NCBI GenBank assembly: GCA_034520885.1
Contig: JAXHNE010000007.1
Coordinates: forward strand, 118,827-182,826
Direction of reading: 5' to 3'
DNA from: Candidatus Saccharimonadota bacterium
GTDB taxonomy: Bacteria > Patescibacteriota > Saccharimonadia > Saccharimonadales > JAXHNE01
DNA: 64,000 nt
Numbering within the stretch: the first letter of the stretch is position 1; each line of letters starts with the position of its first letter. Shown here in pieces: positions 4,671-57,686 of the stretch. Both the position numbers and the translations under genes were made by a program. Below the pieces are notes generated by a model. That model saw nothing but the letters and a program-made list of their open reading frames with translations, did not search any database and was not told where the DNA came from.

Positions 4671-4693
4671 AGCTACGAACCGGGGGTTCGTTG

Positions 4694-5272: not shown

Positions 5273-5899
5273 GTGAAAACCGATAAACGCGTTCACAAAG
5301 TGGTCAGCACCGTCATATTGGTCATTGTCGTGGGCATTGTCGCCATGTTGTGGTATTTAAGTTCGGTCGAAGATAATATAACGCGCACCGATGTTCCGGA
5401 AATAACCGATACTTCCGAAACCGAAGTAACCGACTTCGCCTCGTGCGTGGAAGCCGGCAACCCGGTCATGGAAAGCTACCCGGAGCAATGTTCCGCGAAC
5501 GGGGTAACCTACGTGAACCCGGAGCAACGGCGGGAATCGGAAGCGCAAGCTCAGCCGAGCACCGGTATCATTAGCGGTGAAGCGGGCTACCCCAGTGAAA
5601 GGCTCCCCGAGGATTTGGAAATATGCCTTGAATCGGTCGAAACCAACGAAATCGTTGGCGAATGCCACGAAGTGAATGTCGCGGATTACTCAATCGAAGC
5701 GCCGGAAGGTACCTTTTACGTATTTGCCCGTACGCAAGATAGGCCGGATTACCGGGCTTACTACAACGAATTCGTGGAATGCGGTTTACGTGCCGACTGT
5801 CCGAAAAGCGGGCATCAGGCATTAATTGGGGTAGAGGTTACGTCCGGTGGAACGGTCGAAGGAGTCAATCCCAATGATTGGTACGACACCTCTCAGTAA
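5273..5899 (+). CDS. hypothetical membrane-anchored or secreted protein
   Basis: GTG start behind aaggaag SD; N-terminal hydrophobic helix VVSTVILVIVVGIVAMLWYL; Cys-containing acidic ectodomain. Confidence 0.55.
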   Translation: MKTDKRVHKVVSTVILVIVVGIVAMLWYLSSVEDNITRTDVPEITDTSETEVTDFASCVEAGNPVMESYPEQCSANGVTYVNPEQRRESEAQAQPSTGIISGEAGYPSERLPEDLEICLESVETNEIVGECHEVNVADYSIEAPEGTFYVFARTQDRPDYRAYYNEFVECGLRADCPKSGHQALIGVEVTSGGTVEGVNPNDWYDTSQ

Positions 5900-5917: not shown

Positions 5918-7882
5918 ATGAACCGCTTTCAGCTGAAGTCACAGTACGATCCGCAGGGTGATCAACCCCAAGCTATCGAAGCCCTGATTAAAGGGCTGGA
6001 TGCCAAACAAAAAGAGCAAACTTTGCTCGGGGTGACCGGTTCGGGCAAGACGTTCACTATGGCCAACGTGATCCAGTCCGTACAAAAGCCCACGCTGGTT
6101 TTATCGCATAACAAAACTTTGGCCGCACAGCTCTATAGTGAGTTCAAGCAGTTTTTCCCGGATAACGCGGTGCACTATTTCGTGAGTTACTTCGATTATT
6201 ATCAGCCGGAAGCTTACATTCCGCGCAGCGATACCTACATCGAAAAAGACAGCCAAATTAACGAGGAAATCGACCGCCTGCGCCATGCCGCCACCGACGC
6301 GTTGCTGTCTCGGCGGGACGTGATTATCGTGGCCAGTGTGAGCTGCATTTACGGTATCGGTTCCGTGGAAGATTACGACGGGTTGTCCATTCACCTGAAA
6401 AAGGGCGAACGCCGCGTGCGGGATAAATTCCTGCGGCAACTGACGGACATTCAATACCAACGCAACGATACCGACTTTCACCGCAGCACTTTTCGGGTAC
6501 GCGGCGACGTGGTGGATATTTTCCCCGCCGGCGAGGAAGCCGCTTACCGCGTGGAATTTTTCGGGGATGAAGTTGATCGGCTCACCCGGATCAACGCCTT
6601 GACCGGTGAGATTGAGGCCGACCAAAACGAACTGCGCATTTTCCCGGGCAGCCACTACGTGACCAGCCAGGACAAACTCAAGATTGCCCTGGGCCAAATC
6701 GAACACGAATTGCAAGAACGGCTCGCTCAGTTCAAACGTAATAATCAGTTACTGGAAGCCCAGCGGCTGGAGCAACGAACCCGTTTTGACCTGGAAATGC
6801 TGGAAGAAACCGGCTTCGTAAAAGGCATCGAAAACTACAGCCGCTACTTGACCAACCGCGAGCCCGGCGAGCAACCCGCCACGCTTTTGGATTACTTTCC
6901 GGATGATTACCTGATGTTCGTTGACGAATCACACATGACCATCCCGCAAGTGCGCGGCATGTACAATGGCGATCGCGCCCGCAAAGAAGTGCTAGTAGAA
7001 CACGGCTTTCGGCTGCCCAGCGCCCTGGATAACCGTCCGCTGCAATTCAGTGAATTCGAGCGCCATATCAATAATGTGGTGTACGTCAGCGCCACGCCGG
7101 CGGAATACGAATTAAGCCGCAGCGGTAAACCGATTGAGCAAGTCATTCGCCCCACCGGCCTGCTTGATCCGCCAATCGAAGTCCGGCCCATCAAAGGCCA
7201 AATTGACGATCTGATCGACGAAATAAAAGCCACCGTGGATAAGCGCCAGCGCGTGTTAGTGACCACGCTGACCAAACGCATGGCGGAGGACTTAACCGAA
7301 TATTTACAGGACGAAGACATCAAAGTCACGTACTTACACAGCGATATCGAGACGTTAGAGCGCACCGACATCCTGCGCGATCTGCGCCTGGGTACGTATG
7401 ACGTGGTGGTGGGGATCAACTTGCTGCGAGAAGGGCTGGACTTGCCGGAAGTTAGCCTGGTGGCCATTTTGGACGCCGACAAAGAAGGCTTCTTGCGCAG
7501 TGAGCAGGCACTGATCCAAACCGTCGGCCGCGCCGCCCGGCATCAGGAGGGCAGAGTAGTGATGTACGCCGACACCGTCACCAAAAGTATGCGGCGCACC
7601 ATGGACGAAACTACCCGCCGCCGGGAAATCCAAAAAGCTTACAACGACGAACACGGCATCACGCCCAAAGGCATCGCCAAAGCGGTGGAAAAAGGCTTGC
7701 GCCCCGACCTACCGGAAGAAGCCAAGACCGCCAAGCTGGATCTTAAAAAAGTACCCAAAGACGAATACAAACAGATCGTTAAGGACTTAAGCGCGCAAAT
7801 GGACTTGGCCAGCAAAAACCTGGAATTCGAAAAAGCCGCGGAGCTCAGAGACATTATTGCCGAAGTCAAGTCAAAACTCTGA
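5918..7882 (+). CDS. uvrB: excinuclease ABC subunit B
   Basis: 654 aa; Walker A GVTGSGKT, helicase motifs, C-terminal UVR motif; TACAAT 6 nt upstream of ATG. Confidence 0.95.
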
Positions 7883-8030: not shown

Positions 8031-8074
8031 AACTCCGATTTAAATCGGAGTTAACTCGGAGTTCGGTGGTGTCG
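8031..8074 (+). repeat. palindromic 11-mer element, copy 1 (AACTCCGAtttaaaTCGGAGTTAACTCGGAGTTcggtggtgtcg)
   Basis: Read directly; shares core and 3' flank with six other copies. Confidence 0.9.
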
Positions 8075-8189: not shown

Positions 8190-8945
8190 ATGAGTGAAGT
8201 ACTAAGAGGGCTTACTTTTACAGGTGGCGATCAAGCTGCTACAAATGCAGCCGCCGAAGCACCGTTTAGCGTAACTGAGCGCACCGACTTGGCGGTTGCG
8301 GCTTTCGGCTCTTTAGGCCAGATAGACAAGGCGCAACTGACCGAAGAAGTTGGCATGCACATGCAACAACTTCACGAAGGCCTTCACGGACAGTACGACA
8401 AAAACGACGTAGAGCCATTCATGTCGATTAACCTGTCTGATAGCTTTCCGCTTGCTGCGCTTGTGGTCGCGTTTGACAGACAGCAACAGGCAAAAACCTA
8501 CGTTTACGAACCATTTTGGAGTCAGTACAGCCCGGCGGAACTAAACAGCCGAAGTCTGGACAGTGCATCGGCACGTCAAGACATTACGGCTTCAGCCCGT
8601 GCTATGCTTACCGCCACTGATTACGAAGGTGAGTCTGGCCTGCGGTTTCCAAGCAAAAAAGGTAAAGATCAGTCCAATTTAGCTCAAGATCACGAACTAG
8701 TGAACCCAGCTGATTACATCATTCTGAATGCGCAACGACGCGAAGCCGGCGAGCCACTACTAGACACCCGAACCTTCACCCGTTTTGTGCAACTGGCTAT
8801 GAAGCCGGCTGGCGGGGCTGACGGCAGCACTTGGATTCCGGACGCGGGTTCCGGCCGCGGTCAGTTGAGCCTGCGCGGGGGGTCGTGCGACCATGCGATT
8901 CCGCACGCTGGTGTCCGTCTCTCGGTGGGGCGAAACCAGGCTTAA
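8190..8945 (+). CDS. hypothetical protein (cassette gene bracketed by palindromic elements)
   Basis: ORF 8094..8945; start moved to ATG 8190 because the consensus promoter lies inside the longer ORF; no recognisable domain. Confidence 0.5.
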   Translation: MSEVLRGLTFTGGDQAATNAAAEAPFSVTERTDLAVAAFGSLGQIDKAQLTEEVGMHMQQLHEGLHGQYDKNDVEPFMSINLSDSFPLAALVVAFDRQQQAKTYVYEPFWSQYSPAELNSRSLDSASARQDITASARAMLTATDYEGESGLRFPSKKGKDQSNLAQDHELVNPADYIILNAQRREAGEPLLDTRTFTRFVQLAMKPAGGADGSTWIPDAGSGRGQLSLRGGSCDHAIPHAGVRLSVGRNQA

Positions 8946-8996: not shown

Positions 8997-9053
8997 CGAA
9001 CTCCGAGTTAAATCGGAGTTAACTCGGAGTTAACTCGGAGTTCGGTAGTATTG
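8997..9053 (+). repeat. palindromic 11-mer element, copy 2 (one extra AACTCGGAGTT unit)
   Basis: cgAACTCCGAGTTAAATCGGAGTTAACTCGGAGTTAACTCGGAGTTcggtag read directly. Confidence 0.9.
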
Positions 9054-9144: not shown

Positions 9145-10152
9145 CTAGGTTACGGATTGTGGTTGCGGATCGGATCGCAAATGATCAATGCAGGTTACAA
9201 TTTCATGCGCGAAAACGTAAGGGTCGGTAACCGGTCCGAGGTGATTGGCGTCAATAACTTTGGCGTAGTCGAACAACCCCCAAGAAGCTCTCACCGTCTC
9301 ATCCGCCGGGATTAACTGGTCACGATTGCCCAATATCGCCGCTAACTTAATATTATGTTCGCGCTTTAAGTATGCCAAATCCTGCCGATTATCACACGTT
9401 GCCGCCATGTAGCCGCGAATAACCGCCTGTGTGAGGTGTGGGAAAAAGTAATCAATTTCCGAGCGTATGGCATGGAGCGTACCTTTTTCGAATTTTAACC
9501 CGTCTTCGCGGTAAGCCGGCAATGCTTCATGGCGCAGGAACGGCCTAATTCGACCCAACATGCGCCACAAACTACGGCTATTTTCGCAGCCAACTCCTTC
9601 GACGTTGGTAATGGAAGCGACCATATCCGGTTTATGTAATGCCGTCGTGGTACTTGTGTGTAGTCCCAAGGAGTGCCCAGCAAGATCGAACTTTTCTACG
9701 TCAAGTTCCGGGTATTGGTCCGCATTGTCTTGCGTTTTGCGCATAACACCATACAGCGCTTTGCTGAGCAGAATTTCCGGATGCAGAAAATGATCTCTTC
9801 CAAAGCGTGAAGCGAACGACTGAAGCCCATACGGCTGCATGGATATCGCTGCCTTCCCGTGTTGCGCTAGTGCCGCTCGTAGCCCGTCGTATCCGAACTT
9901 CTTTGCTCCGTACCCGTTCACGATAGTCAACGGTCGTGAGTCTTCGATATTATCCGGATCGGCCGGAAACTCCAAAGTTGCCGGTACCAGGGTGCCACCA
10001 ATTTCCGCGGCAAGGTTGACTTTTTTGGTTTCCAACGAAAAACCCTCGCTGGCACGAGGGTTTATAGCTCTAAGTTGTGTTTCGTGGCCGCCGGATTCGG
10101 TGCCGACGGGCATCGGTTCGTGCGTTTCAAGATCTACTCTTTCAAGCGCCAC
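9145..10152 (-). CDS. alpha/beta hydrolase fold protein
   Basis: 335 aa; nucleophile elbow GHSLG (DLAGHSLGLH), C-terminal His region (DANHLGP). Confidence 0.7.
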   Translation of the reverse strand: MALERVDLETHEPMPVGTESGGHETQLRAINPRASEGFSLETKKVNLAAEIGGTLVPATLEFPADPDNIEDSRPLTIVNGYGAKKFGYDGLRAALAQHGKAAISMQPYGLQSFASRFGRDHFLHPEILLSKALYGVMRKTQDNADQYPELDVEKFDLAGHSLGLHTSTTTALHKPDMVASITNVEGVGCENSRSLWRMLGRIRPFLRHEALPAYREDGLKFEKGTLHAIRSEIDYFFPHLTQAVIRGYMAATCDNRQDLAYLKREHNIKLAAILGNRDQLIPADETVRASWGLFDYAKVIDANHLGPVTDPYVFAHEIVTCIDHLRSDPQPQSVT

Positions 10153-26047: not shown

Positions 26048-26124
26048 CCATCTTCCATCTTCTATCTTCCAAATTCCATCTTCTAGCCGTTGCATTCAAT
26101 CCCCATTCCCCAATCTTCCATCTA
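26048..26124. repeat. heptad-periodic tract (ccatctt ccatctt ctatctt ccaaatt ccatctt ...)
   Basis: Read directly; lies just 3' of pepN (minus strand). Confidence 0.75.
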
Positions 26125-44850: not shown

Positions 44851-44958
44851 AATGAGCAATGAAAATCGAGCAAAGAGCAATGAGTTATAAAAACCTGCCC
44901 CGCGGTAGACTTTCAACTTTCAACTTTCAACTTTCTACTCAGCGAGCGGAGCGAGCCT
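44851..44958. repeat. three consecutive heptad tracts (aatgagc-type x5; tttcaac x3 + tttctac; cagcgag/cggagcg)
   Basis: Fills nearly the whole recG-to-next-gene spacer. Confidence 0.8.
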
Positions 44959-46498: not shown

Positions 46499-46583
46499 GG
46501 CGCGGTGGTGGAATTGGTAGACACGCTAGTTTTAGGAACTAGTATCGCGAGATGTGAGAGTTCGAGTCTCTCCCGCGCCACCA
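46499..46583 (+). tRNA. tRNA-Leu (anticodon TAG), type II with a long variable arm and encoded CCA
   Basis: Acceptor GGCGCGG/CCGCGCC, anticodon stem CTAGT/ACTAG with loop TTTAGGA, T-arm GAGAGTTCGAGTCTCTC, discriminator A + CCA. Confidence 0.9.
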
Positions 46584-46649
46584 AAACTTGACTACGGGAC
46601 ACGCTAGTCCAAAACCGTAAAAACCTTAAGATTCAAATCGCACTTTGAA

Positions 46650-46700
46650 CCGAACTCCGAGTTAAATCGGAGTTAACTCGGAGTTATGGTATGGTGTCGG
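46650..46700 (+). repeat. palindromic 11-mer element, copy 3
   Basis: ccgAACTCCGAGTTAAATCGGAGTTAACTCGGAGTTatggtatggtgtcgg, 67 nt after the tRNA-Leu. Confidence 0.9.
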
Positions 46701-46795
46701 TTTTTTGTTGGATAGTTTGCACAAAATTCAGGAGTGAAGGGGAATTCTCAGTATACGAACTAAAACAAGGGTCAGCATGTTAAAATACGGTTAAT

Positions 46796-49700
46796 ATGGC
46801 AAATTTGTTTGGTAAAAACAGGCTGAGTGAAAAAGCAGCCGAGATTAATACGGATGAGATTATCGATTTTATCGAGATCGTCAAAACATGGCACGCTGAT
46901 TGCCATGACGGTTCGCTCAAGAATGATAAAGAAACTTCTCGGGAACAGGAATACAATCAGTCCTTTTTCAAAAACATTCTCGGCTACAAAGAAAAACCAA
47001 CAGTCCCGTATAACTTTGAGCCAAAGGCGACAACAAAAACGGGCCACTTGCCAGATGCGGTCATCAGTTATACGGACAAGTCCAATGACATAGAAAATAT
47101 AGCTGCCGTTGTTGAGCTAAAAGGTGCATCGGTTGATCTAGATCGTCCGCAGCGTCGCGAGGGCAATATGAGCCCCGTACAGCAAGGTTTCAAATACAAA
47201 ACGCTATACCGTAACTGTCCATTCGTAGTCGTTAGTAACTTTTGGGAGTTTCGCTTGTATCACGACAACTTGCTCGACTACGAAGTCTGGACACTGGACG
47301 ATCTCGTTAACCCCGATGACGACTACATTCTGTTTAAAACTTGGTACACGCTACTAAAACGAGAAAATTTTACTGCCAAAAAAGGTGCCAGCAAGACAGA
47401 AGACCTACTGAGTGATATCCGCATTGAGCAGGAAGAAATAGGAAAAGATTTCTATAAAGTCTACAAAAAAGCAAGGCTTAGCTTACTCAGAGACATTATT
47501 GAGCAAAACCAAGTCAAACGAGGCGAAATAGACCTGGCTATAGAAAAAACGCAAAAAATCATTGATCGCATTGTTTTTGCTTGTTTTGCCGAAGACAGAG
47601 GATTGTTCCCGGATGATACTTTGCGCAGAGTTATAAAATCAGCGGATGAATCCGACTTTGATAGCTCGCTATGGTTTACGTTCAAGGCATTTTTTGAATC
47701 CGTTAATAGCGGTAGCGAGAAGTTAGGGATAGCGGACGGTTACAACGGCGGCCTGTTCGCACATGACGCAGAGCTAAATAACCTGAAGGTTGGCGATCGT
47801 CCTTTGCGCCAAATCGCAGAGCTTGGTGGGTACAATTTTGTTGAAGACCTGAGCGTTACCATTCTTGGTCATATTTTCGAACAGTCCATCAGTGACCTCG
47901 AAGAGATTAAAAACAAAGTCAATGAAAAACAAGGTCTAGACGCAATTCAGCAAAGTAGGCGCAAAAAAGACGGCATTTTCTACACGCCTGACTATATTGT
48001 CCGTTACATTGTCGACAACTCACTAGGGGCGTATCTACGTGAAGCAGAGGAACGGCTTAAAGACGAGTTCAGGCTTCACGGCGACATTAATGAAAAAAAT
48101 TATGAAAAACGCGAACGTCAAGCTTACGGTAAATACCAGGATTTCCTGCAAAACGTTAAAGTGTTAGATCCGGCGTGTGGTTCGGGCGCGTTCCTCGTGT
48201 ATGTGTTTGACTACCTGCTTGCAGAGAACAAGCGTGTGGCGAGCATTCTTGGCAATAGCCTGTTTAGCAGTGAAGATTATATAAAAGATATTTTACGCAA
48301 CAACATTTATGGCGTAGACCTTAATGAAGAATCAGTAGAGATAACTAAACTCTCACTATGGCTAAAATCCGCCCAAAAAGGTAAAAAACTTACCTCGTTG
48401 GACGACAACATAAAATGCGGTAACAGCCTTATAGACGACCCAGAAATCGCAAGCGACAAAGCTTTTGACTGGCAAAAAGAGTTTCCTAGTATTTTCGCAG
48501 ACGGCGGTTTTGATGTCGTTGTCGGGAATCCACCTTGGGTTTCACTAGGTGGAAAGCACGGTCAAAAAGTAAGTGACGATGAACTTAAATACTATATTGA
48601 GAAATACAACGGCAACACATACATGCCCAATCTGTTTGAATACTTCATAAATCTTGGCATCAATCTTTTGAGTACAGACGGTTATTTTGCGATGATTGTG
48701 CCAGATCGTTTTGGGATAAACGGTGTGTTTAACAAGTTACGTAAGCAAATATGGCAAAAGCATACCCTTGTTGAAGTCGTGTACAAGTGGGATTTTCCGT
48801 TTATCGTTACAGATACCATGACTTTTGTCATTAAAAAGCAAGTTGCGAACAAGCAAAAGGTGGCGATCAAGGCAAATCCAAAATCAGACTCAATATTCCT
48901 TACAAATAGCGAGATAGATGAAGATAGTTATGGGTTTAAGGCATTCAAATCAAAGCAGTCCAAAAAGCTTATTGATAAAATATTGGATGGCGGAGTTTCG
49001 TTATCGGAGGTTGCAAAAACCACTTCTGGTTTTGGTGGAAGATCAAAACTTATAACCATCAAAAGAGTGTCTCCAGAACAGAGAGAGATCTTGAAGGGTC
49101 AATCAATAGGACGTTATTTAGTCAAAGATAGGCTATATTTTGAATTTACTGACGAGAATGTAACCGGTAGAACGAGAGATGAAAATAAGTTAAGCGCAAG
49201 ACCAAAAGTACTACTCAGAAAAACTGGCTCGGAAATCATTGCCAGTTTCGACGACACTGGCGCATATCCAGAACAATCCCTTTACTTCCTATACTCATTT
49301 GCTGATAAAGTGCAGCCACTTTATATCTTGGCACTACTTAACTCAAGGTTAATAACTTGGCTTTTTAGAAATAACTACATAACTAACGCGGATAGTACTC
49401 CACAGCTAAAAAACATTGATTTAGATAAGTTTCCCATAGTAATTGCGGACAATAAAACGCAAGCGCAAATAGCAGAATTGGCGTCTGGCATAGTCGAAAA
49501 ATCAAAAACTTTGTACACGAACTCACAAAAACTAAATAGATTAGTGTCTGTGGAATTTTCTTTTGATAAGTTACCAGCCAAACTCAACAGATGGTGGACG
49601 CTTGACTTCGCAGACTTTGCAAATGCCTTAAAAGTTAAACTTTCGCTCCAGCAAAAAGACGAGCTTCTGCAACTCTTTGAAAAATACCGCACAGAATGTG

Positions 49701-49810
49701 CCGAACTCGACGCCCAAATCCAAAAAACCAATAACGAAATCGATCAACTAGTGTACAAACTTTACAACCTTACCCCCAAAGAGATACAGATTGTTGAAAC
49801 TGGAGCTTAA
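46796..49810 (+). CDS. type IIG/IIL restriction-modification enzyme (fused PD-ExK nuclease, N6-adenine methyltransferase and specificity domain; MmeI/Eco57I-like)
   Basis: 1004 aa; N-terminal LPDAV...VVELKG (PD-(D/E)xK), SAM motif VLDPACGSGAFLV, catalytic VVGNPPWV, C-terminal TaqI-like specificity region (LLNSRLITWLFRN). Confidence 0.85.
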   Translation: MANLFGKNRLSEKAAEINTDEIIDFIEIVKTWHADCHDGSLKNDKETSREQEYNQSFFKNILGYKEKPTVPYNFEPKATTKTGHLPDAVISYTDKSNDIENIAAVVELKGASVDLDRPQRREGNMSPVQQGFKYKTLYRNCPFVVVSNFWEFRLYHDNLLDYEVWTLDDLVNPDDDYILFKTWYTLLKRENFTAKKGASKTEDLLSDIRIEQEEIGKDFYKVYKKARLSLLRDIIEQNQVKRGEIDLAIEKTQKIIDRIVFACFAEDRGLFPDDTLRRVIKSADESDFDSSLWFTFKAFFESVNSGSEKLGIADGYNGGLFAHDAELNNLKVGDRPLRQIAELGGYNFVEDLSVTILGHIFEQSISDLEEIKNKVNEKQGLDAIQQSRRKKDGIFYTPDYIVRYIVDNSLGAYLREAEERLKDEFRLHGDINEKNYEKRERQAYGKYQDFLQNVKVLDPACGSGAFLVYVFDYLLAENKRVASILGNSLFSSEDYIKDILRNNIYGVDLNEESVEITKLSLWLKSAQKGKKLTSLDDNIKCGNSLIDDPEIASDKAFDWQKEFPSIFADGGFDVVVGNPPWVSLGGKHGQKVSDDELKYYIEKYNGNTYMPNLFEYFINLGINLLSTDGYFAMIVPDRFGINGVFNKLRKQIWQKHTLVEVVYKWDFPFIVTDTMTFVIKKQVANKQKVAIKANPKSDSIFLTNSEIDEDSYGFKAFKSKQSKKLIDKILDGGVSLSEVAKTTSGFGGRSKLITIKRVSPEQREILKGQSIGRYLVKDRLYFEFTDENVTGRTRDENKLSARPKVLLRKTGSEIIASFDDTGAYPEQSLYFLYSFADKVQPLYILALLNSRLITWLFRNNYITNADSTPQLKNIDLDKFPIVIADNKTQAQIAELASGIVEKSKTLYTNSQKLNRLVSVEFSFDKLPAKLNRWWTLDFADFANALKVKLSLQQKDELLQLFEKYRTECAELDAQIQKTNNEIDQLVYKLYNLTPKEIQIVETGA

Positions 49811-50661
49811 TGGACGGCTTATTTAACCATAGAGAGATAGCCGTAGGGCTGTGGTTAGCAGTACTTATAGTCTTTGCTGCTAGTAAAAAGGTAGTGCGCT
49901 CATCGTTTGTAGATGTTCTTAAAGCATTCTTCATGCCAAAAATAATCATACCGCTGTTACTGTCATTTGCGCCTATCTTGCTGGTAGTGTGGCTGTTGGC
50001 ATACTTCAATCTTTGGGACTTATCTGTACTTAAAGAGACAATCTACTGGGTTATTGGTACGGGAATAATAATGTTCGGTAAGTTTAATGATGTTAAAAAT
50101 GTAAAGACACTATACAAACAGACAGCAAAAGAAACTCTAGCGTTAGTGGTCTTGCTGGAGTTCGTTATTTGGCTTTACGTATTTCCTTTATGGGCTGAGT
50201 TGATATTAGTGCCGTTTGTAACCTTAATAGTACTACTGGCGACAGTTGCAAAGTATATGAAAACAGACGGTATAGGATTAACACGCAAAGTGCTAAATGG
50301 TATGCAAATATTCATTGGTCTACTTATACTACTATTCGCATTCATCGGCTTTACGAAAAACCCTGCATTGTTATTCACCTTTCAAAACCTAGAACTATTC
50401 TTATTGCCTATAATTTTGTCGTTGACCTACGCGCCGTCAGTGTACCTCATAGCGTTATACAGCAAGTATGAGTTGGTATTTAATCGCATCAATCACTATA
50501 TTTCGCCAGAAATCAAAGATAAACGGTCTATCAAGTTAGCTTGTATTAGACGCTGCGGTTTAAGCTTGCGCACAACTAGTGATATGACACGACACTTAGC
50601 GATTAACTTAACTAACGAGACAACAACCCCACAAGCCCTTAAATTGGTTCGTGATTTTTGA
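49810..50661 (+). CDS. hypothetical polytopic (~7 TM) membrane protein coupled to the RM gene
   Basis: 283 aa; start overlaps the RM stop (TAATG); same AT-rich composition; no known domain. Confidence 0.6.
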   Translation: MDGLFNHREIAVGLWLAVLIVFAASKKVVRSSFVDVLKAFFMPKIIIPLLLSFAPILLVVWLLAYFNLWDLSVLKETIYWVIGTGIIMFGKFNDVKNVKTLYKQTAKETLALVVLLEFVIWLYVFPLWAELILVPFVTLIVLLATVAKYMKTDGIGLTRKVLNGMQIFIGLLILLFAFIGFTKNPALLFTFQNLELFLLPIILSLTYAPSVYLIALYSKYELVFNRINHYISPEIKDKRSIKLACIRRCGLSLRTTSDMTRHLAINLTNETTTPQALKLVRDF

Positions 50662-50776
50662 CCCGAAACAAAAAGAAGCTTTGCTCGACACTAGCGCGTA
50701 GTGCGGCGCCTTTGCCATACCAGCGAAGCTCCAACACTTTTGTCTTTTATGACAGGCGAACCTTAAAAAACACATA

Positions 50777-50979
50777 GCTGAACCTTCAGGCGATAAAAGA
50801 AAAACTGCCCGGCTCAGACCAGTAAAAACATTAATTTACCAGCTTCTTCACCGAACTCCGAGTTAAATCGGAGTTAACTCGGAGTTCGGTGTCGTGTACG
50901 GATTTTCTTTAGTTGGTTTGCGCGAAAGTACAGAGTAGGGCGGGGTACCGCAATCCGGGGTTTAAAGCTCGCTACAATT
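50777..50979 (+). repeat. ~203-bp junction module L1 (contains palindromic element copy 4 at 50849-50891 and ends in TACAAT)
   Basis: Aligns along its whole length with 52831-53033, with scattered substitutions and one 1-nt indel. Confidence 0.9.
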
Positions 50980-51137
50980 ACCAAAAGCGGAGTCTAATAT
51001 AGTATGGGCGGATGCACTCATTTGACATTCGATCAGGACGGGTCTATTCTTACGGAAGGTGATATAAAATATGGGTCTTGCCCGGCAAAGTCTAAAAAAA
51101 GTCTCTCGTCAAAAAAACAACCAAAAGGGGTATCTCT

Positions 51138-52694
51138 ATGGCAAAGTCAAAAGCCAAAAGAACTAAAGCGTCACGTTCCAATAAAAAGAAAAAGCAATCA
51201 TTCGCCCAGAAATTCATGGGCCTCCCCAAAACGGTACTTTTCATTATTGCTTTTGGGCTGGTGGGAGTCGTTGGTCTTGTTATTGCAAGTGCCGGCCCGA
51301 ATTACAGTATGTCCCACAAACATTTAAATACGGAAAAATCAGTCAATGCCACAAAAGTTAAAGAAACCCGTGACAGCAAACGAAATGCAAAAGTAGTAGA
51401 AATAAAAAATAACTCAGAAGAGTCCGTTGCTAAAGCAACAATTTCACGCGACGTACCAGCAGGTACCTACGAAGTTTGTCTTATTGGTGTTGCTCAATCA
51501 GGTAGCCCAACGGGTACGTTCAGTGCGCGAGAATTTACTACCAGAACGGGTAATGATCTAGGGGTGACTACCTACACGGCAAAATCCGGAGGTGATTACG
51601 AAGAACTAGCATGTTTAAGTTTTGAGCATAAGGAAGGTGATAGCTCGCATTTGGCTCTATATGTCACTAACACGAATCCAGACACTTCGCTGAGGATAAG
51701 TGTCATCTCAGTAGAAGAGGTTGAAGGCAATGATACGGACGTGTCAATTGACGAGGAGCCAACTGATCCTCCGTCAACTGACCCCGGCGATTTGACTACC
51801 CTCTCGGGCTCACGGGCAATAAAGGCTTCATGCAATACGAAGGCACAGTACAATGGGACAAACCCACGCAATAACTTCCCAACGGATATTACGACCGGCC
51901 CGGAAGCCTCCGGCATCAACGAAGAGGCTTTACCAAGCTCAGGCCACTCCGGATCATGGACTATTTCACGAAACGGCGCAGTTGTTGACGGTGTTTTCCA
52001 TAACGGCAGTATTAATGTCAAAGCAGACAATGTAACAATAAAAAACAGTGTCATCTGCGGTAACTCAAGCATAATTGTTGACAACGATGGCAAAAACTTA
52101 CGTATTGAAAATTCAATAATTCGAGGCGAAGATAACGGTTCAGGTGACTGTGGTGCTGCTATAGCCCAAGGAAACTATAAAATGTACAACACAGAAGTAA
52201 CTTATTGTGCTGACGGTGGTAAGTTGAATGGTGTTGTCGAGATTTACAACTCATGGTTCCACGATTTTTTCACTAATCGCTACGGGAACGGAGGAGGTAC
52301 TCACAACGATACCTTACAGAAAAACAAAAACCCAAGTCTCGACCGGCTAATCGTTAAAGGCAATAGCATGTATCAAGACCCTTGTACCAGTAACCGACAC
52401 CTGCAAATGGGTGGACCGGATGAGTCAAGTCTCACGATTCCTTACTTAAGGTGGGAGGACAACTTTATGTATGGCATCAGAGGCTTCTATAAAGATGACA
52501 ACGTGCATGTAAGCGATGGTTTGATCTCTGGCAACACATTTGCAGGTAGTGCAACCAAAGGACCTTTCCCTACAGCTGGTTTATACAGCTGGGGTAATGG
52601 AACGCCAATACCGCGTAATGGAAATCTGTTCGAAAGTGGGCAAAATGCTGATGAAAATCCAAGTAGAAGTTCATATAACTGCACGAACATTTAA
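51138..52694 (+). CDS. membrane-anchored right-handed beta-helix (pectate-lyase/NosD-like repeat) surface protein
   Basis: Basic N-terminus + TM helix VLFIIAFGLVGVVGLVIA. C-terminal half has repeated N-x-(V/I)-x-I-x-N-(S/N) turns (VKADNVTIKNSVICGNSSIIVDNDGKNLRIENSIIRG). aagggg SD. Confidence 0.65.
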   Translation: MAKSKAKRTKASRSNKKKKQSFAQKFMGLPKTVLFIIAFGLVGVVGLVIASAGPNYSMSHKHLNTEKSVNATKVKETRDSKRNAKVVEIKNNSEESVAKATISRDVPAGTYEVCLIGVAQSGSPTGTFSAREFTTRTGNDLGVTTYTAKSGGDYEELACLSFEHKEGDSSHLALYVTNTNPDTSLRISVISVEEVEGNDTDVSIDEEPTDPPSTDPGDLTTLSGSRAIKASCNTKAQYNGTNPRNNFPTDITTGPEASGINEEALPSSGHSGSWTISRNGAVVDGVFHNGSINVKADNVTIKNSVICGNSSIIVDNDGKNLRIENSIIRGEDNGSGDCGAAIAQGNYKMYNTEVTYCADGGKLNGVVEIYNSWFHDFFTNRYGNGGGTHNDTLQKNKNPSLDRLIVKGNSMYQDPCTSNRHLQMGGPDESSLTIPYLRWEDNFMYGIRGFYKDDNVHVSDGLISGNTFAGSATKGPFPTAGLYSWGNGTPIPRNGNLFESGQNADENPSRSSYNCTNI

Positions 52695-52807
52695 ACTACA
52701 ATAAAGTTTTCATGAGTCGTTAATCTTGCATGGTTTACTGGGCTTAAGTAACCAAGAGTCATTAGAGATGCTTATATTGCGGCCAAAGTGCGTAAGCGTG
52801 AGTATAT

Positions 52808-52825
52808 GTTTTCCGTACGGAAAAC
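52808..52825. other. perfect 18-nt palindrome GTTTTCCGTACGGAAAAC after the beta-helix gene
   Basis: Read directly; terminator-like hairpin without a U-tract. Confidence 0.5.
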
Positions 52826-52830
52826 GCGTG

Positions 52831-53033
52831 GCTGAGCTTTCAGGCGATAAAAGAAAAACTGCCCGGCTCAGACCGGTAAAAACATCAATTTACGGACTTC
52901 TCTACGAACTCCGAGTTAAATCGGAGTTAACTCGGAGTTCGGTGTCGTGTACGGATTTTCTTTAGTTCGTTTGCGCGAAAGTGCAGAAGAGGGGCGGGGT
53001 ATTGCAATCCGGGGTTTAAAACCTGCTACAATT
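52831..53033 (+). repeat. ~203-bp junction module L2 (contains palindromic element copy 5 at 52905-52941 and ends in TACAAT)
   Basis: Direct repeat of L1; its TACAAT (53027-53032) sits 8 nt before ATG 53041. Confidence 0.9.
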
Positions 53034-53040
53034 TATGCAA

Positions 53041-53712
53041 ATGAGCGAAACACTTAGGAAAACGGAGAATCCCGAGCATTTCGATGTTCACCATGAAAAC
53101 GGTGAAGCTTTGATGTGCATGTCGAGCGAAGGCGAGTGCCGTGTCCTGGTAGAAATCATGTCGGGGTATACGCCCGAAGAACAGCAGCAGCTTACGGGCT
53201 CTACCACCGGCGCGCTTGAAGCCATTGATCGCTTTACGGACGGTAAAGCCGCGGATATTTTTACCGGTTTGCATATAAAAATTGGCGAGGACGTAACGGA
53301 AGGCGGAGCGAAAACAATCGCCGAGGAAAACCAAGTACTGCTCAGTGGTAGAAAAATGCTTTTGAGCATTGACGAAATGCGCCACGTAAGCGGAGCGTAC
53401 GGCAGCGAAGAGCTTACCGACTTTCCTGACGCACACCGACCTGGCGGCGCACTGGAATACACCCTGGTTCACGAAATAGGGCACGTTCTTGACGGCCAAA
53501 CCCAAGCCGGCGAACCGTACCACCGCGTTTCCGCCAAAGAAAGCCCTACGAAGTACGGACGCGAGTCCGACGAGTGGCACGACAATAAAAGCCACGAAAC
53601 GTTCGCGGAAGGCTTTGCGCACGCAGTTTACGACATGCCCATAAGCGAACCGCTGGAAACCGCCGTACGCGACACAATCAATACGAGGTTACAAGAAGTC
53701 ACCAAAACCTAA
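53041..53712 (+). CDS. HExxH zinc metallopeptidase-like protein (resembles the anthrax-lethal-factor / Pro-Pro-endopeptidase M34-type motif spacing)
   Basis: TLVHEIGHVLD followed ~45 aa later by HETFAEGFAHAV (third-ligand Glu context); no signal peptide; start moved from 53035 to 53041. Confidence 0.55.
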   Translation: MSETLRKTENPEHFDVHHENGEALMCMSSEGECRVLVEIMSGYTPEEQQQLTGSTTGALEAIDRFTDGKAADIFTGLHIKIGEDVTEGGAKTIAEENQVLLSGRKMLLSIDEMRHVSGAYGSEELTDFPDAHRPGGALEYTLVHEIGHVLDGQTQAGEPYHRVSAKESPTKYGRESDEWHDNKSHETFAEGFAHAVYDMPISEPLETAVRDTINTRLQEVTKT

Positions 53713-53755
53713 ACCAAATTTAAAATCTACGAGCGGAAAGAAATAACTAAAACTG

Positions 53756-54178
53756 CTAGAGTTCTTCTTTCCGCTCAGGCCACTCGTGATACGGATATAG
53801 TTCTCGTAACTTAACGGTTTTGTCGCTACTGATTATAACGTCAGCATCCAGACCATCCTCGAGTCTACTAAACATAAAGAGTCTACATGCACCGCACGGG
53901 GGCAAAACATAGACATCTTTTTGAGGATTATTATTCCAAACGGCGACAATCTTTTTTACTTTGTATTCTTTGTTAGTAAACATTTGAGCGATTGCGGTTC
54001 GTTCCGCGCAAGAGCCCACGCCAGAGCCATCGTCAACGCACGCCCCTTTGTAGATATTACCTTTGTCGGTGACTAGAGCCGACCCCACGTCGCCAATCCA
54101 GTCACCCTCAATCTCAATGGGATTAAGTACATCAACCGCTAGTTTTATCAGTTCTTTATTCGATATTTCATTATCCAT
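53756..54178 (-). CDS. cytidine / blasticidin-S deaminase-fold protein
   Basis: 140 aa; zinc motifs CAERTAI and PCGACR at the spacing typical of small tetrameric CDA/BSD enzymes. Confidence 0.8.
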   Translation of the reverse strand: MDNEISNKELIKLAVDVLNPIEIEGDWIGDVGSALVTDKGNIYKGACVDDGSGVGSCAERTAIAQMFTNKEYKVKKIVAVWNNNPQKDVYVLPPCGACRLFMFSRLEDGLDADVIISSDKTVKLRELYPYHEWPERKEEL

Positions 54179-54400
54179 ACTACAACTTTAACAGATTTAT
54201 CCATTTTACTCCGTTGTGTACGTTTCAGTAACTGCTACAGGGCAACACTCTAGGTCTTGTGAGATACCAGAGCTTAACCAAACTTAAAAGCCTACGTTAG
54301 TGAAGTCGGGCATGCTTCGGAGCCAAACCGCAGCTCTTTCTCCGTAACAGCAACCTCAAGCACTCAGGGTATATTTAGCTTTTCTTGTTATAGTAGGGAA

Positions 54401-54766
54401 GTGAACTTAAACGAAACCGATTTACGTGAACTGGAAAAGTTAGAGGAATCGCTTTGGGAGCGGAAAACGCGATTTGACAATGACTACATGAGAAGCGTTT
54501 TGGCCGATGACTTTTTGGAGTTTGGGCGTTCCGGGAAGGTTTACGACCTTGAAGAGTCGTTGTCGGCCCCCGACCAAGAAATCAAAGCAAAGCTACCTCT
54601 TAAAGACTTTTCAGTGCACCAAATTGACGAGACCGTAGCCTTGGTAACCTACGTGAGCCAAGTAGAGTATGACAGTTTAGAAGTTAGCAACCGAAGCTCT
54701 TTGTGGCAGAACACCGGCGAGGGCTGGAAACTCAAGTTTCATCAGGGCACTCCAGTAAATCCATAG
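54401..54766 (+). CDS. NTF2-like (DUF4440/SnoaL-type) protein
   Basis: 121 aa; LADDFLEFGRSGKVY...WKLKFHQGT pattern typical of DUF4440. Confidence 0.7.
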   Translation: MNLNETDLRELEKLEESLWERKTRFDNDYMRSVLADDFLEFGRSGKVYDLEESLSAPDQEIKAKLPLKDFSVHQIDETVALVTYVSQVEYDSLEVSNRSSLWQNTGEGWKLKFHQGTPVNP

Positions 54767-54831
54767 CCGTGTCTAGCTTTTGATCCCAAACAAATGACAA
54801 CTTCTCGCAGGGCATCCCCCTAAAAACAACC

Positions 54832-54870
54832 CACCGAACTCCGAGTTAAATCGGAGTTATGGCTTGTCGT
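54832..54870 (+). repeat. palindromic 11-mer element, copy 6 (short form)
   Basis: caccgAACTCCGAgttaaaTCGGAGTTatggcttgtcg, between convergent genes. Confidence 0.85.
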
Positions 54871-54896
54871 CAGGTCTGTTCGTTGGTTTTTGGGGT

Positions 54897-55583
54897 TCAG
54901 CCACTACTTAAGTGCTCGTGAATAATCTGCCAGTTGCCATCAATTCTTTGTAGAACATTAGTGCCACGACCTGTGTACACTGGTTGTTTGTTATTTACTT
55001 TGCCGTCTAAAGTAAAATCATATACGCATGCGGCGGTATCGTAGTCTCGCGCGAGCCACACAATGTTGTTTATCTTGTATATTCCATCCTGAATATTTTG
55101 GTAGATGCTCTCAAAGGCTTGCCGGATTGATTTGATACCGTGGTAGGTTCCATTCGTAAACCAAAAGACCGCGTCTTTGGCAATCATAGGGGCAACGTTC
55201 TCAAAATCACGTGAGTTGACCGCTTTCTCGTACGCTTGAAGAAGCGTGGTCAGTTCATTGTGAACCTCGGCGTCGCCGTTTGTAGTTATGGGTTCACCCT
55301 TTTTAATTGTTCGAGCGGCAACATCAGCCATTCTTTCTAAGTCCTGGTACGTATTGGCTTTATCTTCAGCGTGATTTACATAACGGCTTGGGCCTCGAAA
55401 CAAAAAGCGCTTGCCCCAAAATGAATGCACATAGGCGTGTTGGCTTTTCGGGAGCAGCTTAAAGTCTGCTTTGGTAATTTCGGTGAGCTCGTATGGCACT
55501 ACTACCTCGTCCTTTTTGAAGTCACGATTAGCTTGGACGCCTTTGCCTCGAAAACTGCCATTTCCGATACTTACGTTATCCAT
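54897..55583 (-). CDS. SET-domain / NTF2-like fusion protein
   Basis: N-terminal ~105 aa has SET features (GKGVQANRDFKKDEVVVPY, YVNHAEDKANT, IKKGEPIT); C-terminal ~115 aa is SnoaL/DUF4440-like (VFWFTNGTYHG...GNWQIIHEHLS). Confidence 0.6.
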   Translation of the reverse strand: MDNVSIGNGSFRGKGVQANRDFKKDEVVVPYELTEITKADFKLLPKSQHAYVHSFWGKRFLFRGPSRYVNHAEDKANTYQDLERMADVAARTIKKGEPITTNGDAEVHNELTTLLQAYEKAVNSRDFENVAPMIAKDAVFWFTNGTYHGIKSIRQAFESIYQNIQDGIYKINNIVWLARDYDTAACVYDFTLDGKVNNKQPVYTGRGTNVLQRIDGNWQIIHEHLSSG

Positions 55584-55676
55584 GCATAGAATTTTAACAG
55601 ATTTTACCTGTTAAAATTCTATGCTAGCGAGGCCTGGATTTATTTGAGCTGAACGAACTTTATCAAAAAGTATTGC

Positions 55677-55720
55677 ACCGAACTCCGAGTTAAATCGGAG
55701 TTATGGTATGGTGTCGGTGG
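55677..55720 (+). repeat. palindromic 11-mer element, copy 7 (short form)
   Basis: caccgAACTCCGAgttaaaTCGGAGTTatggtatggtgtcggtgg; its 3' flank is identical to copy 3. Confidence 0.85.
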
Positions 55721-55755
55721 GTTGGGGTATAAAAACCTTATGCTAAAACGAAAGG

Positions 55756-55947
55756 ATGAATCATATGGGCGCTCGAAAAATGGGTGAGCAACACATTCGC
55801 AGCCTCACGCAAAATAAAACGGGGACGTATCAGGTATCTTTGCCGATACGCGTGATACGGGAAATGGGCTGGCGTGAACGGCAAAAGCTCACCGTAACCC
55901 GCCAAGGTAAAAAACTAATAGTCCAAGACTGGAACCCCCAAACCTAG
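55756..55947 (+). CDS. AbrB/MazE/SpoVT-type DNA-binding protein (antitoxin-like)
   Basis: 63 aa; VSLPIRVIREMGWRERQKLTVTRQGKKLIVQDW swapped-hairpin pattern; the true start may be ATG 55765 (better SD spacing). Confidence 0.6.
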   Translation: MNHMGARKMGEQHIRSLTQNKTGTYQVSLPIRVIREMGWRERQKLTVTRQGKKLIVQDWNPQT

Positions 55948-55982
55948 TAGTTAGTAGATGGTATTTAGTACTTACTTGTTAA
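55948..55982. repeat. heptad-periodic tract (tagttag tagatgg tatttag tacttac ttgttaa)
   Basis: Directly after the AbrB-like stop. Confidence 0.7.
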
Positions 55983-56055
55983 GGGTGCTGTGAAGGTTCT
56001 ACGAAGGTTTTCGCTATTGCTTTTGTTATATAAATATCCGGTGTAATATTTATGC

Positions 56056-56649
56056 ATGTCAGCTGAAACGTTAAGATCTTTCGAATCAAGCGGAGAAGAG
56101 GTCTTTGATGAGCTAATGGTGGACTACTCTGAAGCAATGCATGATTATCAGAGAGCATTGCGCGGCTACATCATGCTTAGATATGAAGAAAATGTCTCGG
56201 CGCATACAACAAGACTCGAGGATATCGACTTAAACACACCCTATGCTCAGCAACCGGATCAGTTGGCAAGGGACGCACTAGCTGTGTGGATTCACACTGA
56301 AAAACTGAGTATGGCGCAAAGGGACTTGCATTCTATGGAAAGAGAGTGGGATCAGGAGCATAGAGATGATATTAGCGGCCTGCTTGGCAGAAAGGTCAAG
56401 GTAGCTGCAATCGATCCAGACAGGAGCTCTATCGGCACTAGCAAACTTAATGAATCTGGTGAGTACGATGGTCTTGGCCAGTGGCATGATACTGTTGCTG
56501 GTAGGCTTACGGGTCTTAATCTTGACCTCGACACGGGTGGTGGTGTAGTTGTAAAGAAACCTTTTAGCAAAAAACACTACAGTGCCTATCCATTGCTAAG
56601 TCCCAATACTGCATGTGAGCCACTGTATAAAATAGAGTTCTTGGATTAG
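56056..56649 (+). CDS. hypothetical protein
   Basis: 197-aa ORF, acidic N-terminal half; no recognisable motif. Confidence 0.45.
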   Translation: MSAETLRSFESSGEEVFDELMVDYSEAMHDYQRALRGYIMLRYEENVSAHTTRLEDIDLNTPYAQQPDQLARDALAVWIHTEKLSMAQRDLHSMEREWDQEHRDDISGLLGRKVKVAAIDPDRSSIGTSKLNESGEYDGLGQWHDTVAGRLTGLNLDLDTGGGVVVKKPFSKKHYSAYPLLSPNTACEPLYKIEFLD

Positions 56650-56807
56650 ATAAAAGTAAAATATGGCTGCTCACCAGGCTTCGTGAAGCTCGCGCCGAAA
56701 TTTAAAGTAAACAGGCAACTTCATGCCTTAACTGATATCCCAAAGTGCTGTCTTGGAAGCAATAAAAAACACTATTGCTTTGAACGGATTAACAACGGGT
56801 GTAAAAA

Positions 56808-57305
56808 TCAACTTCGGACGGAATCCTTGGCTTTAGCTTCACTGCTGCGTGCCCACTCGCGGTCTGTTCTTACGCTTTGCCAGTACAGAACTATACCCAT
56901 TCCAATCGTTCCCAACCCTGCCACTTGAGAAACTCTTCCAATCACATTAGAAGTGGTTGCGCTGCTTTCTTGCGCCTCAAGATCGTTCTCAGCAAATTCC
57001 AAGGCCCGAGCATGCCCAACAGATAGCTCAATGTCCTCACCTGCAGAAATAACGACGTCTCGACCTTCGTAGTCAGCTGTAAAGTGCCGGTCAGAGTCTT
57101 CAATAATTGCATTCCCAAGCACTAACATACCTAGGTCTTTTTGTTGTTGTTCGGTCAGCTCCGAATACTCTGCCACGTCGTCTCTCAACTCACGCGCATC
57201 TGTCACATATTCTGGGGTACCTCCACCTGCATTCTCACCGCCAAAATATACCATAAACCCGCCTATACCAACTACGCAAGCCGCAAGTTTTGATTCTATA
57301 GCCAT
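56808..57305 (-). CDS. hypothetical protein with N- and C-terminal TM helices
   Basis: 165-aa ORF; hydrophobic segments AACVVGIGGFMVYFG and VAGLGTIGMGIVLYW. Confidence 0.45.
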   Translation of the reverse strand: MAIESKLAACVVGIGGFMVYFGGENAGGGTPEYVTDARELRDDVAEYSELTEQQQKDLGMLVLGNAIIEDSDRHFTADYEGRDVVISAGEDIELSVGHARALEFAENDLEAQESSATTSNVIGRVSQVAGLGTIGMGIVLYWQSVRTDREWARSSEAKAKDSVRS

Positions 57306-57359
57306 ATTTACTCCTTATGTGAAGTAATTATACAGCATTTTCTGGCGAAAACTTGTTTC

Positions 57360-57407
57360 CAAGGAGGCTCCTTGGAAATACTAATAGTCCAAGACTGGGA
57401 AGCGTAG
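57360..57407 (+). pseudogene. remnant of a second AbrB-like gene 3' end (...QGGSLEILIVQDWEA*)
   Basis: The 18-nt ctaatagtccaagactgg is identical to 55915-55932; no upstream start or body. Confidence 0.45.
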
Positions 57408-57423
57408 CGGGCGCTACGCGCAT

Positions 57424-57486
57424 AGATGATAGATGATAGGTGATGGATGGAAGTTGGTAGTTGGAAGATAGTAGTTAGTAGATCGT
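57424..57486. repeat. heptad-periodic tract (~9 units: atagatg atagatg ataggtg atggatg gaagttg gtagttg gaagata gtagtta gtagatc)
   Basis: Read directly; its last 23 nt repeat 55945-55967. Confidence 0.8.
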
Positions 57487-57686
57487 ATTTAAAAAGTCGG
57501 GATTTAGTATTTTTTGTTTCTGAGGTGCCACCCAAGGGAAGTAAGTTATTGCTTAGTTCAAGTTCGACAGTTAGCCTAAAAAGGGGTAGAATATGCTGGC
57601 AATGACACACAATACTGACCTAAACTTGCATCTGCATATGTCGCCTCGTAGAGCCGGCTAGCTTTGCTTTTGTCTTTGATAAACAG

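Follow-up and report, generated by a model that had tools for sequence, protein, structure and literature searches.

Duplicated intergenic modules with conserved palindromic boxes, and a candidate regulator linked to them, in an accessory island of a Saccharibacteria chromosome

Introduction

What is the element that stands on both sides of a beta-helix gene in a Saccharibacteria chromosome, and is it anything more than a spacer between genes? The question is raised by a 64,000-nucleotide stretch of Candidatus Saccharimonadota DNA (GenBank assembly GCA_034520885.1, contig JAXHNE010000007.1, positions 118827 to 182826), here called the window, in which two intergenic modules of about 210 bp, L1 and L2, bracket a gene whose product ends in a beta-helix-like domain. 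The initial annotation, made from the sequence alone, had divided each module into a minus-strand terminator, an 11-mer palindrome and a promoter, and had proposed that every gene cassette arrives with a portable junction of this kind. To our knowledge, the Saccharibacteria and other members of the Candidate Phyla Radiation (CPR) have tiny genomes in which few mobile elements can be recognised and hardly any regulation has been characterised.

The palindrome is more than a spacer: it belongs to a 33-nt array that recurs in other species and is linked to a regulator gene, both of which the initial annotation missed. We read L1 and L2 as paralogous regulatory junctions in which the array would be bound by a small AbrB/MazE-like protein, a promoter would lie downstream, and cassettes would have been inserted by recombination, a reading that we regard as evenly poised between right and wrong.

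Results

Two distinct copies of one module

The modules and the genes that they adjoin are these (aa, amino acids; ORF, open reading frame):

50767-50979, + strand: module L1, separating the gene of a 283-aa membrane protein from the beta-helix gene; 89% identical to L2 over 214 columns.
51138-52694, + strand: beta-helix gene, bracketed by the modules; 518 aa, GC 0.44, with a C-terminal right-handed beta-helix-like domain.
52821-53033, + strand: module L2, separating the beta-helix gene from the HExxH gene; the join of its right arm to the HExxH gene is seen in contig L014.
53041-53712, + strand: HExxH gene, with HEIGH at residues 144-148; GC 0.53; behind the putative promoter of L2.
46607-46790, + strand: diverged third module copy, 64-65% identical to L1 and L2 over 188 columns, above the random maximum.

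Pairwise alignment of 50777-50979 with 52831-53033, the extents first annotated, gives 184 identical columns out of 204 (90%); the full repeat is 10 nt longer on the left, and at this length the two direct repeats agree in 191 of 214 columns (89%). Random 213-nt pairs drawn from the window average 46% identity and reach at most 52%, so the end-to-end duplication that had been proposed is real. Identity is 87% in the left arm, 98.5% (67/68) in the central 68 nt and 85% in the right arm, and it falls to background (39% and 45%) directly beyond the repeat ends. The right edge of homology lies 1 nt past a TACAAT, and the conserved 3' stretch ending in this hexamer is present in both modules, as had been described. 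The third copy noticed earlier is likewise genuine; its boxes lie at 46653-46685 and a TGtTAAAAT at 46778-46786, followed after 9 nt by the ATG (46796) of a type IIG restriction-modification (RM) gene. Beyond a CACCG/CGGTG pair, no longer inverted symmetry and no target-site duplications were found in the module. A perfect 16-nt palindrome, TTTTCCGTACGGAAAA, at 52809-52824 overlaps the left boundary of L2, where homology starts at 52821, and has no counterpart at L1.

The initial annotation had itself raised the possibility that the duplication is an assembly artefact; either it or the order of the blocks would then result from mis-joining at a short repeat. We consider this extremely improbable. 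The source is a metagenome-assembled genome (MAG), GC content varies between blocks, Logan contigs break at every array, and the 67-nt identical centre could confuse assemblers working with short k-mers; yet L1 and L2 differ by about 10%, on both arms, and so are two distinct copies, reads of 150 nt would span the identical centre, and the flanks of the island described below are syntenic with relatives on both sides. Independent support comes from a Logan contig of run SRR26473340 (L014), which is 100% identical to window positions 52938-54861 and has the right arm of L2 joined to the HExxH gene. Its start lies exactly 30 nt (k-1) ahead of the first base at which L1 and L2 differ, and its end falls within the array at 54837, the behaviour to be expected of a k=31 graph that branches at true repeats; both arms therefore exist in the reads. 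In several assemblies, short-read contigs have an end at or close to an array or the border of the island (L006, CAYVHE010000008.1, at 1-52; L011 at its end; L014 at both ends). The box arrays are thus assembly-breaking repeats, and the true copy number per genome may be under-counted.

Box arrays and hairpins

The following elements contain the boxes; the remaining arrays, of three boxes each, start at 46653 (third module copy), 50854 (L1) and 52907 (L2).

50849-50891, no strand assigned: L1 hairpin, made of CACCG, three 11-bp boxes (50854-50886) and CGGTG; 18-bp stem, 7-nt loop.
52905-52941, no strand assigned: L2 hairpin, with three 11-bp boxes (52907-52939); 15-bp stem.
8031-8063, + strand: array of three boxes on the left side of a 1.26-kb insert that lies past uvrB; behind it stands TTGACA-17-TAATAT-7 nt-ATG 8190.
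8999-9042, + strand: array of four boxes on the right side of the same insert, where two genes converge; read on the minus strand, it has the terminator-like CGTTTTTATA behind it.
54837-54858, + strand: array of two boxes between the convergent DUF4440 and SET/SnoaL genes.
55681-55702, + strand: array of two boxes, 36 nt upstream of the TATGCT -10 element of the AbrB/MazE-family gene.

The centre of the module is a 33-nt array of three tandem 11-mers, AACTCCGAGTT, AAATCGGAGTT and AACTCGGAGTT, every one of them palindromic around a central C or G (AACTC-S-GAGTT). The 11-mer palindrome of the initial annotation is therefore present, and in its three tandem units it forms the 18-bp stem of L1 and the 15-bp stem of L2. 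As DNA these hairpins have a folding energy of about -21 kcal/mol (L1 -21.1, z -8.2), with z of about -8 as DNA and about -6 as RNA. The other hairpin of the module, CCGGCTCAGACC(A/G)G, which had been taken for a minus-strand terminator, fared differently: its stem is 4-5 bp long, its energy is that of shuffled sequence on either strand (z of 0.13, -0.54, -0.02 and -0.75), and no minus-strand gene feeds into it.

The window contains seven arrays of two to four boxes, where chance would give about one, and all face the same way; an nhmmer profile made from the seven detected no additional diverged copies in the 64 kb. Those at 46653 and 55681 have a common 16-nt right flank (0 of 500 shuffles reach its score), and those at 46653 and 54837 have an A-rich left flank and a T-rich right flank, which lengthen the stem. 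The hairpins of L1 and L2 are followed by UCGUGUAC, which is not a U-tract, and the terminator scan called neither; the array at 8999, having hairpin and U-tract, qualifies as a terminator on the minus strand. Rfam searches, at gathering thresholds over the whole window and at E<=1 over the island, returned only the tRNA-Leu and a sub-threshold small-RNA match at the hisS terminator.

The 33-mer, or a copy one or two bases off, is found in at least four other Saccharibacteria species, with 1-3 copies per genome, and in two metagenome contigs, both short, which were the only matches of a metagenome scan with the 33-mer. The sequence around it is unrelated among those genomes while the core is kept, and such exactness across species with unrelated flanks is expected of a protein site and not of a mere terminator hairpin. 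Three of the ten genome-scan matches (L001, L004, L010) were discarded as unrelated perfect-palindrome terminators with A/T runs, and a 22-mer of the array had no match in IMG/VR viral contigs.

An AbrB/MazE-like gene beside the arrays

55765-55947, + strand: gene of a small AbrB/MazE/SpoVT-family protein, 60 aa from ATG 55765, or 63 aa if started at 55756; the candidate protein for binding the boxes.

NCBI assigns this protein to the AbrB/MazE/SpoVT family. Its relatives form a family of small, stand-alone proteins (169 cluster representatives at 50% identity, each of about 57-63 aa), the nearest named member being from Candidatus Saccharimonadales; tblastn found no match to it in phages and plasmids. 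When the island proteins were compared by tblastn with all fetched loci, orthologues of the 60-aa protein appeared in L013, a metagenome contig (64% identity; 62% with MAFFT), and in L003, a locus in the MAG of one of the array-bearing species (54%; 55% with MAFFT).

At both foreign loci the gene is transcribed away from the local array, starting 77 nt from it in L013 and 38 nt from it in L003. The layout of the two is the same: the array stands 40-48 nt past the stop codon of an upstream co-directional gene, and its three boxes are followed after 3-4 nt by a -10 element (TGtTATGCT / TGtTAAAAT in L003/L013), a leader with a Shine-Dalgarno (SD) sequence, and the regulator gene. In the window the order is two boxes, 36 nt, TATGCT, SD and ATG 55765. 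Neighbouring genes differ among the three loci. For a single-copy gene to lie beside two of nine foreign arrays by chance we estimate a probability of about 6e-5, assuming some 800 intergenic sites per genome. The MAG that contains L003 has two further arrays (L005 and L008), as a small regulon would look.

That an array stands at the regulator promoter in both L003 and L013 suggests an operator to which a protein binds. The arrangement of the motifs is classic for an autoregulated small DNA-binding protein, and on these grounds the array is most likely the operator of the AbrB/MazE-like protein; at L003 and L013 a combined terminator, operator and promoter, in a compact genome, is plausible. 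No toxin gene lies behind the regulator in the window or in L003. The next ORF in the window is 109 nt away (197 aa, no family match), and the gene after the regulator in L003, 149 nt away, encodes what we judge from its sequence to be an RNA-recognition-motif (RRM) protein; a mazEF-like type II toxin-antitoxin module was rejected, there being no toxin gene directly downstream in the window or in L003.

The P2 promoter of E. coli mazEF reportedly has an 'alternating palindrome' that serves as an autoregulatory operator of an AbrB/MazE-fold protein. Here too a small AbrB/MazE-family gene stands behind a multipartite palindrome whose middle part can pair with either neighbour, and site and promoter overlap at the L003 and L013 loci. 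The differences are that no toxin gene follows in the window or L003, that the window has six further copies, mostly far from a -10 element or between convergent genes, and that the units are exact 11-bp repeats in 2-4 copies, for which binding is predicted.

On a 730-kb Saccharibacteria contig (L002) the array lies 77 nt upstream of a divergent 70-aa ORF, 5556-5768 on the minus strand in the element-oriented frame, which resembles XRE-family helix-turn-helix proteins as judged from sequence and is followed by a small hydrophobic ORF of 122 aa.

The same motifs could work without any dedicated binding protein. Promoter-early stem-loops (PeSLs) are composite terminator/promoter motifs of T4-type phages, where recombination between them inserts, deletes or swaps the gene in between (Arbiol et al. 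2010, PMC2839356; Comeau et al. 2014, PMC4122927). Were the modules cis-acting junctions of this sort, the hairpin would terminate or stabilise upstream transcripts, the part downstream of it would be a promoter, sequence conservation would come from repeated homologous exchange in natural transformation, and the AbrB-like gene would be one more cassette that happens to have a junction. Most arrays do lie 40-215 nt past the 3' end of a gene, convergent junctions included; the minus-strand terminator at 8999 and the stem-extending flanks at 46653 and 54837 fit this, as direct orientation and an identical centre between diverged arms fit recombination, and PeSLs are a precedent for motifs of this kind that drive shuffling (PMC2839356). 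A terminator, however, need not keep an exact 33 nt across species with unrelated flanks, nor would it account for an array that abuts the -10 of the same orthologous regulator in different neighbourhoods; L1 and L2 have no adjacent U-tract, and the 1-3 copies of other genomes are too few for a recombination scaffold. We think it fairly unlikely that the junctions act without a protein.

Promoter motifs

53024-53032, + strand: extended -10 element TGcTACAAT of L2, 8 nt before ATG 53041, the NCBI start (223-aa product).
50973-50978, + strand: TACAAT of L1, which has lost the TG (CGcTACAAT); the beta-helix start codon lies 159 nt downstream.

Among the 54 genes of the window, 13 have a -10-like hexamer ending 5-10 nt before the start codon, against 2.1 expected, and in 8 of the 13 it is preceded by TGn; the starts concerned include 5918, 8190, 35772, 46796, 53041, 53756 (minus strand), 54401, 54897 (minus strand) and 56056. 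This suggests that leaderless transcripts started at extended -10 promoters are a common feature of this genome. At uvrB the start reads TGcTACAAT-6 nt-ATG, the same hexamer as in L2; given this identity and the spacing of the L2 hexamer to the NCBI start, L2 very plausibly ends in a leaderless or near-leaderless promoter for the HExxH gene. The hexamer of L2 (53027-53032) also stands 2 nt before an earlier in-frame ATG at 53035.

The promoter that had been proposed 8 nt before the HExxH gene thus holds in silico and fits the pattern of the 13 genes. That both modules carry one is supported for L2 but not for L1, whose TG is lost and whose downstream gene has its own SD and another promoter-like site, TTGACA-17-TATTCT, at 51022-51050; the L1 promoter copy may be vestigial. 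A literature search on leaderless promoters in Patescibacteria and on palindromic or intergenic repeats in Saccharibacteria found nothing relevant.

Inserted DNA and its genes

46499-46583, + strand: tRNA-Leu; the island begins directly past its 3' end.
46584-57650, no strand: low-GC accessory island of about 11 kb, absent from relatives; its right end is approximate.

The window is Saccharibacteria (CPR) chromosome, with uvrB, gatCAB, tyrS, recG, rsmD, hisS and tig, and its GC skew is positive throughout, which suggests that + is the leading strand. Each of the seven arrays lies in one of two insertions that relatives lack (comparison with L015, L016, L018 and L020). To this extent the proposal of a junction for every cassette is borne out, while its portability is something that we infer.

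In L015 and L016, whose HisRS proteins are 79% and 73% identical to that of the window, rsmD, a further gene (pyrF in L015), tRNA-Leu and hisS follow in order; the tRNA gene is directly upstream of hisS, there is no island, and no boxes occur anywhere in 21 kb. In L018 and L020 (UvrB 85-86% identical), uvrB overlaps the convergent next gene; in the window it is followed by the 1.26-kb insert, consisting of an array, TTGACA-17-TAATAT, a leaderless ORF (8190-8945) and a second array. Exact breakpoints of this insert could not be set, the minus-strand gene after uvrB being non-orthologous between the relatives.

GC content per island gene or block is 0.39-0.53, against 0.49-0.53 in the flanking core segments. 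The island encodes a type IIG RM protein, a membrane protein, the beta-helix and HExxH proteins, a deaminase, DUF4440 and SET/SnoaL proteins, the AbrB/MazE-like protein and two proteins of unknown function; all island proteins are singletons in the protein collection, and arrays lie between the blocks.

Could the hairpin be a recombination site that acts as folded single-stranded DNA, after the manner of integron attC, IS200/IS605 or repetitive extragenic palindromic (REP) sequences, with each block a cassette that is inserted or excised by a recombinase whose gene lies elsewhere in the genome? Relatives lack the blocks, one very stable hairpin stands between successive ones, the 1.26-kb insert has one near each end, and all seven face the same way, on the strand that the positive GC skew suggests as lagging-strand template. 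Acquired blocks separated by similar hairpin repeats in a single orientation also recall clusters of attC sites lacking an integron integrase (CALIN). However, no integrase, transposase or other recombinase was found among the island ORFs, and the blocks, of 1-3 genes each, have mixed gene orientation and their own promoters with -10 elements. The stem is perfect, without extrahelical bases, and its base is CACCG/CGGTG in place of the attC pair R'' (RYYYAAC) and R' (GTTRRRY); the sole GTTRRRY of the hairpin (GTTAAAT) is at its apex. Nor is there a 5' GTAG beside the stem, a target-site duplication or an Rfam match. The uvrB insert extends beyond its two hairpins, by 148 nt and by about 100 nt, and in other species isolated arrays stand beside housekeeping genes. 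REP and REPIN elements, which RAYT transposases mobilise, have high copy numbers and inverted doublets, whereas the boxes have only 1-3 copies in other species and those of the window are direct repeats. We therefore hold a folded recombination site to be highly doubtful. A dif/Xer-like reading of the boxes (8-6-8 arms) was discarded: they occupy two separate loci, the window has no switch of GC skew, and they presumably bear no likeness to dif consensus sequences.

The segment 46796-50661 holds a 1004-aa type IIG RM fusion (MmeI/Eco57I-like N6-methylase and TaqI_C specificity domain), whose gene overlaps by one base that of the 283-aa protein, which is strongly hydrophobic, apparently multi-pass, and without family match; at 0.39-0.41 the GC content of these two genes is the lowest in the window. 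The 283-aa ORFs at 8094 and 49810 are not homologous. The translation of the beta-helix gene begins with a basic stretch and then a hydrophobic segment; homologues of its C-terminal domain are 46-55% identical, some with Pfam PF13229. The closest homologue with DNA (L024, Ga0597029_0002427, 6001-7626) lies among ECF sigma factors, PaaX, an acyl-CoA dehydrogenase and a HisKA_3/GerE two-component system, a free-living, non-CPR context that hints at cross-phylum acquisition of the domain. Neither boxes nor flanking repeats occur at the homologues in L021 and L024.

No duplication of the tRNA-Leu 3' end that could serve as attR was found in the window. In the relative L016 (ERZ27315374) the tRNA-Leu is intact (9411-9495), and a partial copy of its 3' end, aagtcctttctcgcgcacca, lies about 180 bp downstream (about 9655-9680); this copy resembles an integration scar and suggests that tRNA-Leu is a recurrent insertion site in the lineage. 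A second pair of direct repeats, 55910-55967 and 57376-57491, surrounds ORFs 56056-56649 and 56808-57305 (minus strand). Its repeats, AAAWACTAATAGTCCAAGACTGG and TAGTAGTTAGTAGATSGTATTTA, are each 96% identical between copies, and the first takes in the last codons (LIVQDW) of the AbrB/MazE-like gene, whose 3' end is partly duplicated; the segment inside looks like another nested insertion. Heptamer tandem repeats occur at 4643-4674 (AGCTTTC x4.6), 26048-26083 (CCATCTT x5.1), 44909-44939 (ACTTTCA x4.4), 55945-55974 (TAGTAGT x4.3) and 57422-57481 (ATAGATG/TGGTAGT x4-5). The repeats at 4643 and 44909, and the two that follow the AbrB/MazE-like gene and precede hisS, were checked and are intergenic. 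A GTAGTTAGTAGAT motif is likewise present past tRNA-Leu in L015.

Discussion

If L1 and L2 are regulatory junctions bound by the AbrB/MazE-like protein, as we prefer to read them, their parts might work together as follows. Two to four tandem 11-bp boxes, about one helical turn apart, would bind the small protein encoded at 55765-55947. As single-stranded RNA or DNA, the array would fold into a hairpin of 15-18 bp, plausibly blocking read-through from the upstream gene, and the insulator could be either this hairpin or the bound protein. Some 87 nt downstream of the array, the extended -10 promoter of L2 would start a leaderless HExxH mRNA, its copy in L1 having degraded. A circular or linear beta-helix cassette with a module of its own would have recombined with a resident module, by a Campbell-type or other homologous exchange, and the crossover would fall in the 68-nt centre: a near-identical centre between arms about 14% diverged is the pattern expected from a single crossover between resident and incoming modules. 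Copies between convergent genes or far from a -10 element would be roadblocks or insulators if bound, and plain hairpins if not.

Several observations weigh against this reading. The array lies 87-114 nt upstream of the -10 element in L1, L2, the third copy and at 8031, too far for simple promoter occlusion; the arrays at 8999 and 54837, between convergent genes, have no promoter to control; and L1 and L2, whose hairpin has no U-tract right behind it, do not qualify as canonical intrinsic terminators. Arrays in other genomes adjoin ordinary genes too (metK, ftsE, aspS, an ABC transporter), and the sole array of L002 (5845-5877) adjoins an XRE-type and not an AbrB-type gene. The 60-aa protein scores just under the Pfam cut-off for PF04014 (E 4.1e-5; 23.9 bits against 24.7), has no sequence match in the PDB, and gave a single-sequence AF2 model (pLDDT 54) too poor for a fold search. 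A 'GGGGTxTAAAACCT' likeness between its promoter and L2 was reached by 37 of 500 shuffles and, not being significant, was not used. The whole 210-bp module had no match in phages or plasmids (blastn, 11-nt words), and genome, metagenome and phage/plasmid scans gave no second genome, phage or plasmid carrying it; its transfer between genomes is thus hypothetical. The repeats, the hairpin, the promoter-like pattern, the status of the blocks as insertions and the association of array and regulator gene are read directly from the sequence; protein binding, insulation, transcript ends and recombination are predicted from it.

PeSLs are the closest counterpart of the modules, which are best classed as a variant of known composite regulatory junctions. 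Both are repeated intergenic motifs that combine a stable stem-loop with a sigma-70-type promoter, here a predicted one; both are direct repeats able to recombine; and both are concentrated in variable regions where they flank accessory ORFs, in our case the two insertions absent from relatives. They differ in several respects. The modules belong to a bacterial (CPR) chromosome and not to a T4-type phage; they are about 210 bp long with the hairpin some 87 nt upstream of the -10 element, whereas PeSLs are compact with overlapping parts; their hairpin consists of tandem palindromic boxes of 11 bp, whose sequence is kept in several species and which are linked to a regulator gene; and their promoters are of the extended -10, leaderless type. 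Mini-circles and exchange events are reported for PeSLs; for the present modules exchange is proposed from their sequence.

A further likeness is to the stoperators of cluster A mycobacteriophages, reportedly the sites of the L5 gp71 repressor. Stoperators are asymmetric 13-bp phage sites, at which bound repressor would stop transcription between genes. In both cases many copies of one site stand in short intergenic gaps in a single orientation; the arrays described here differ in being palindromic and in lying in a bacterial island, and a repressor-dependent block is putative. Taken further, the arrays and the AbrB/MazE-like protein might constitute a cassette-management system in ultra-small CPR bacteria, a speculative idea that we regard as improbable. 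Protein-bound junctions would then silence or insulate new genes in stoperator fashion and mark the points of cassette gain and loss, and capture would be integron-like without an integron integrase, by natural transformation and RecA or by an unrecognised recombinase.

As a new element, the module is a composite junction of a known type together with a conserved candidate operator-regulator pair in CPR bacteria, and it overturns no expectation. It yields a defined repeat found at the borders of all acquired blocks in two insertion hot spots, a candidate regulator-operator pair conserved in several Saccharibacteria species, and in-silico support for common leaderless extended -10 promoters in the lineage. 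If the boxes are not bound, the finding shrinks to an ordinary duplicated intergenic region. If they are, it would offer a testable model of how accessory genes, such as RM, surface and peptidase genes, are connected, insulated and exchanged in a reduced-genome epibiont, and would provide promoters and insulators for use in the genetics now being developed for these organisms.

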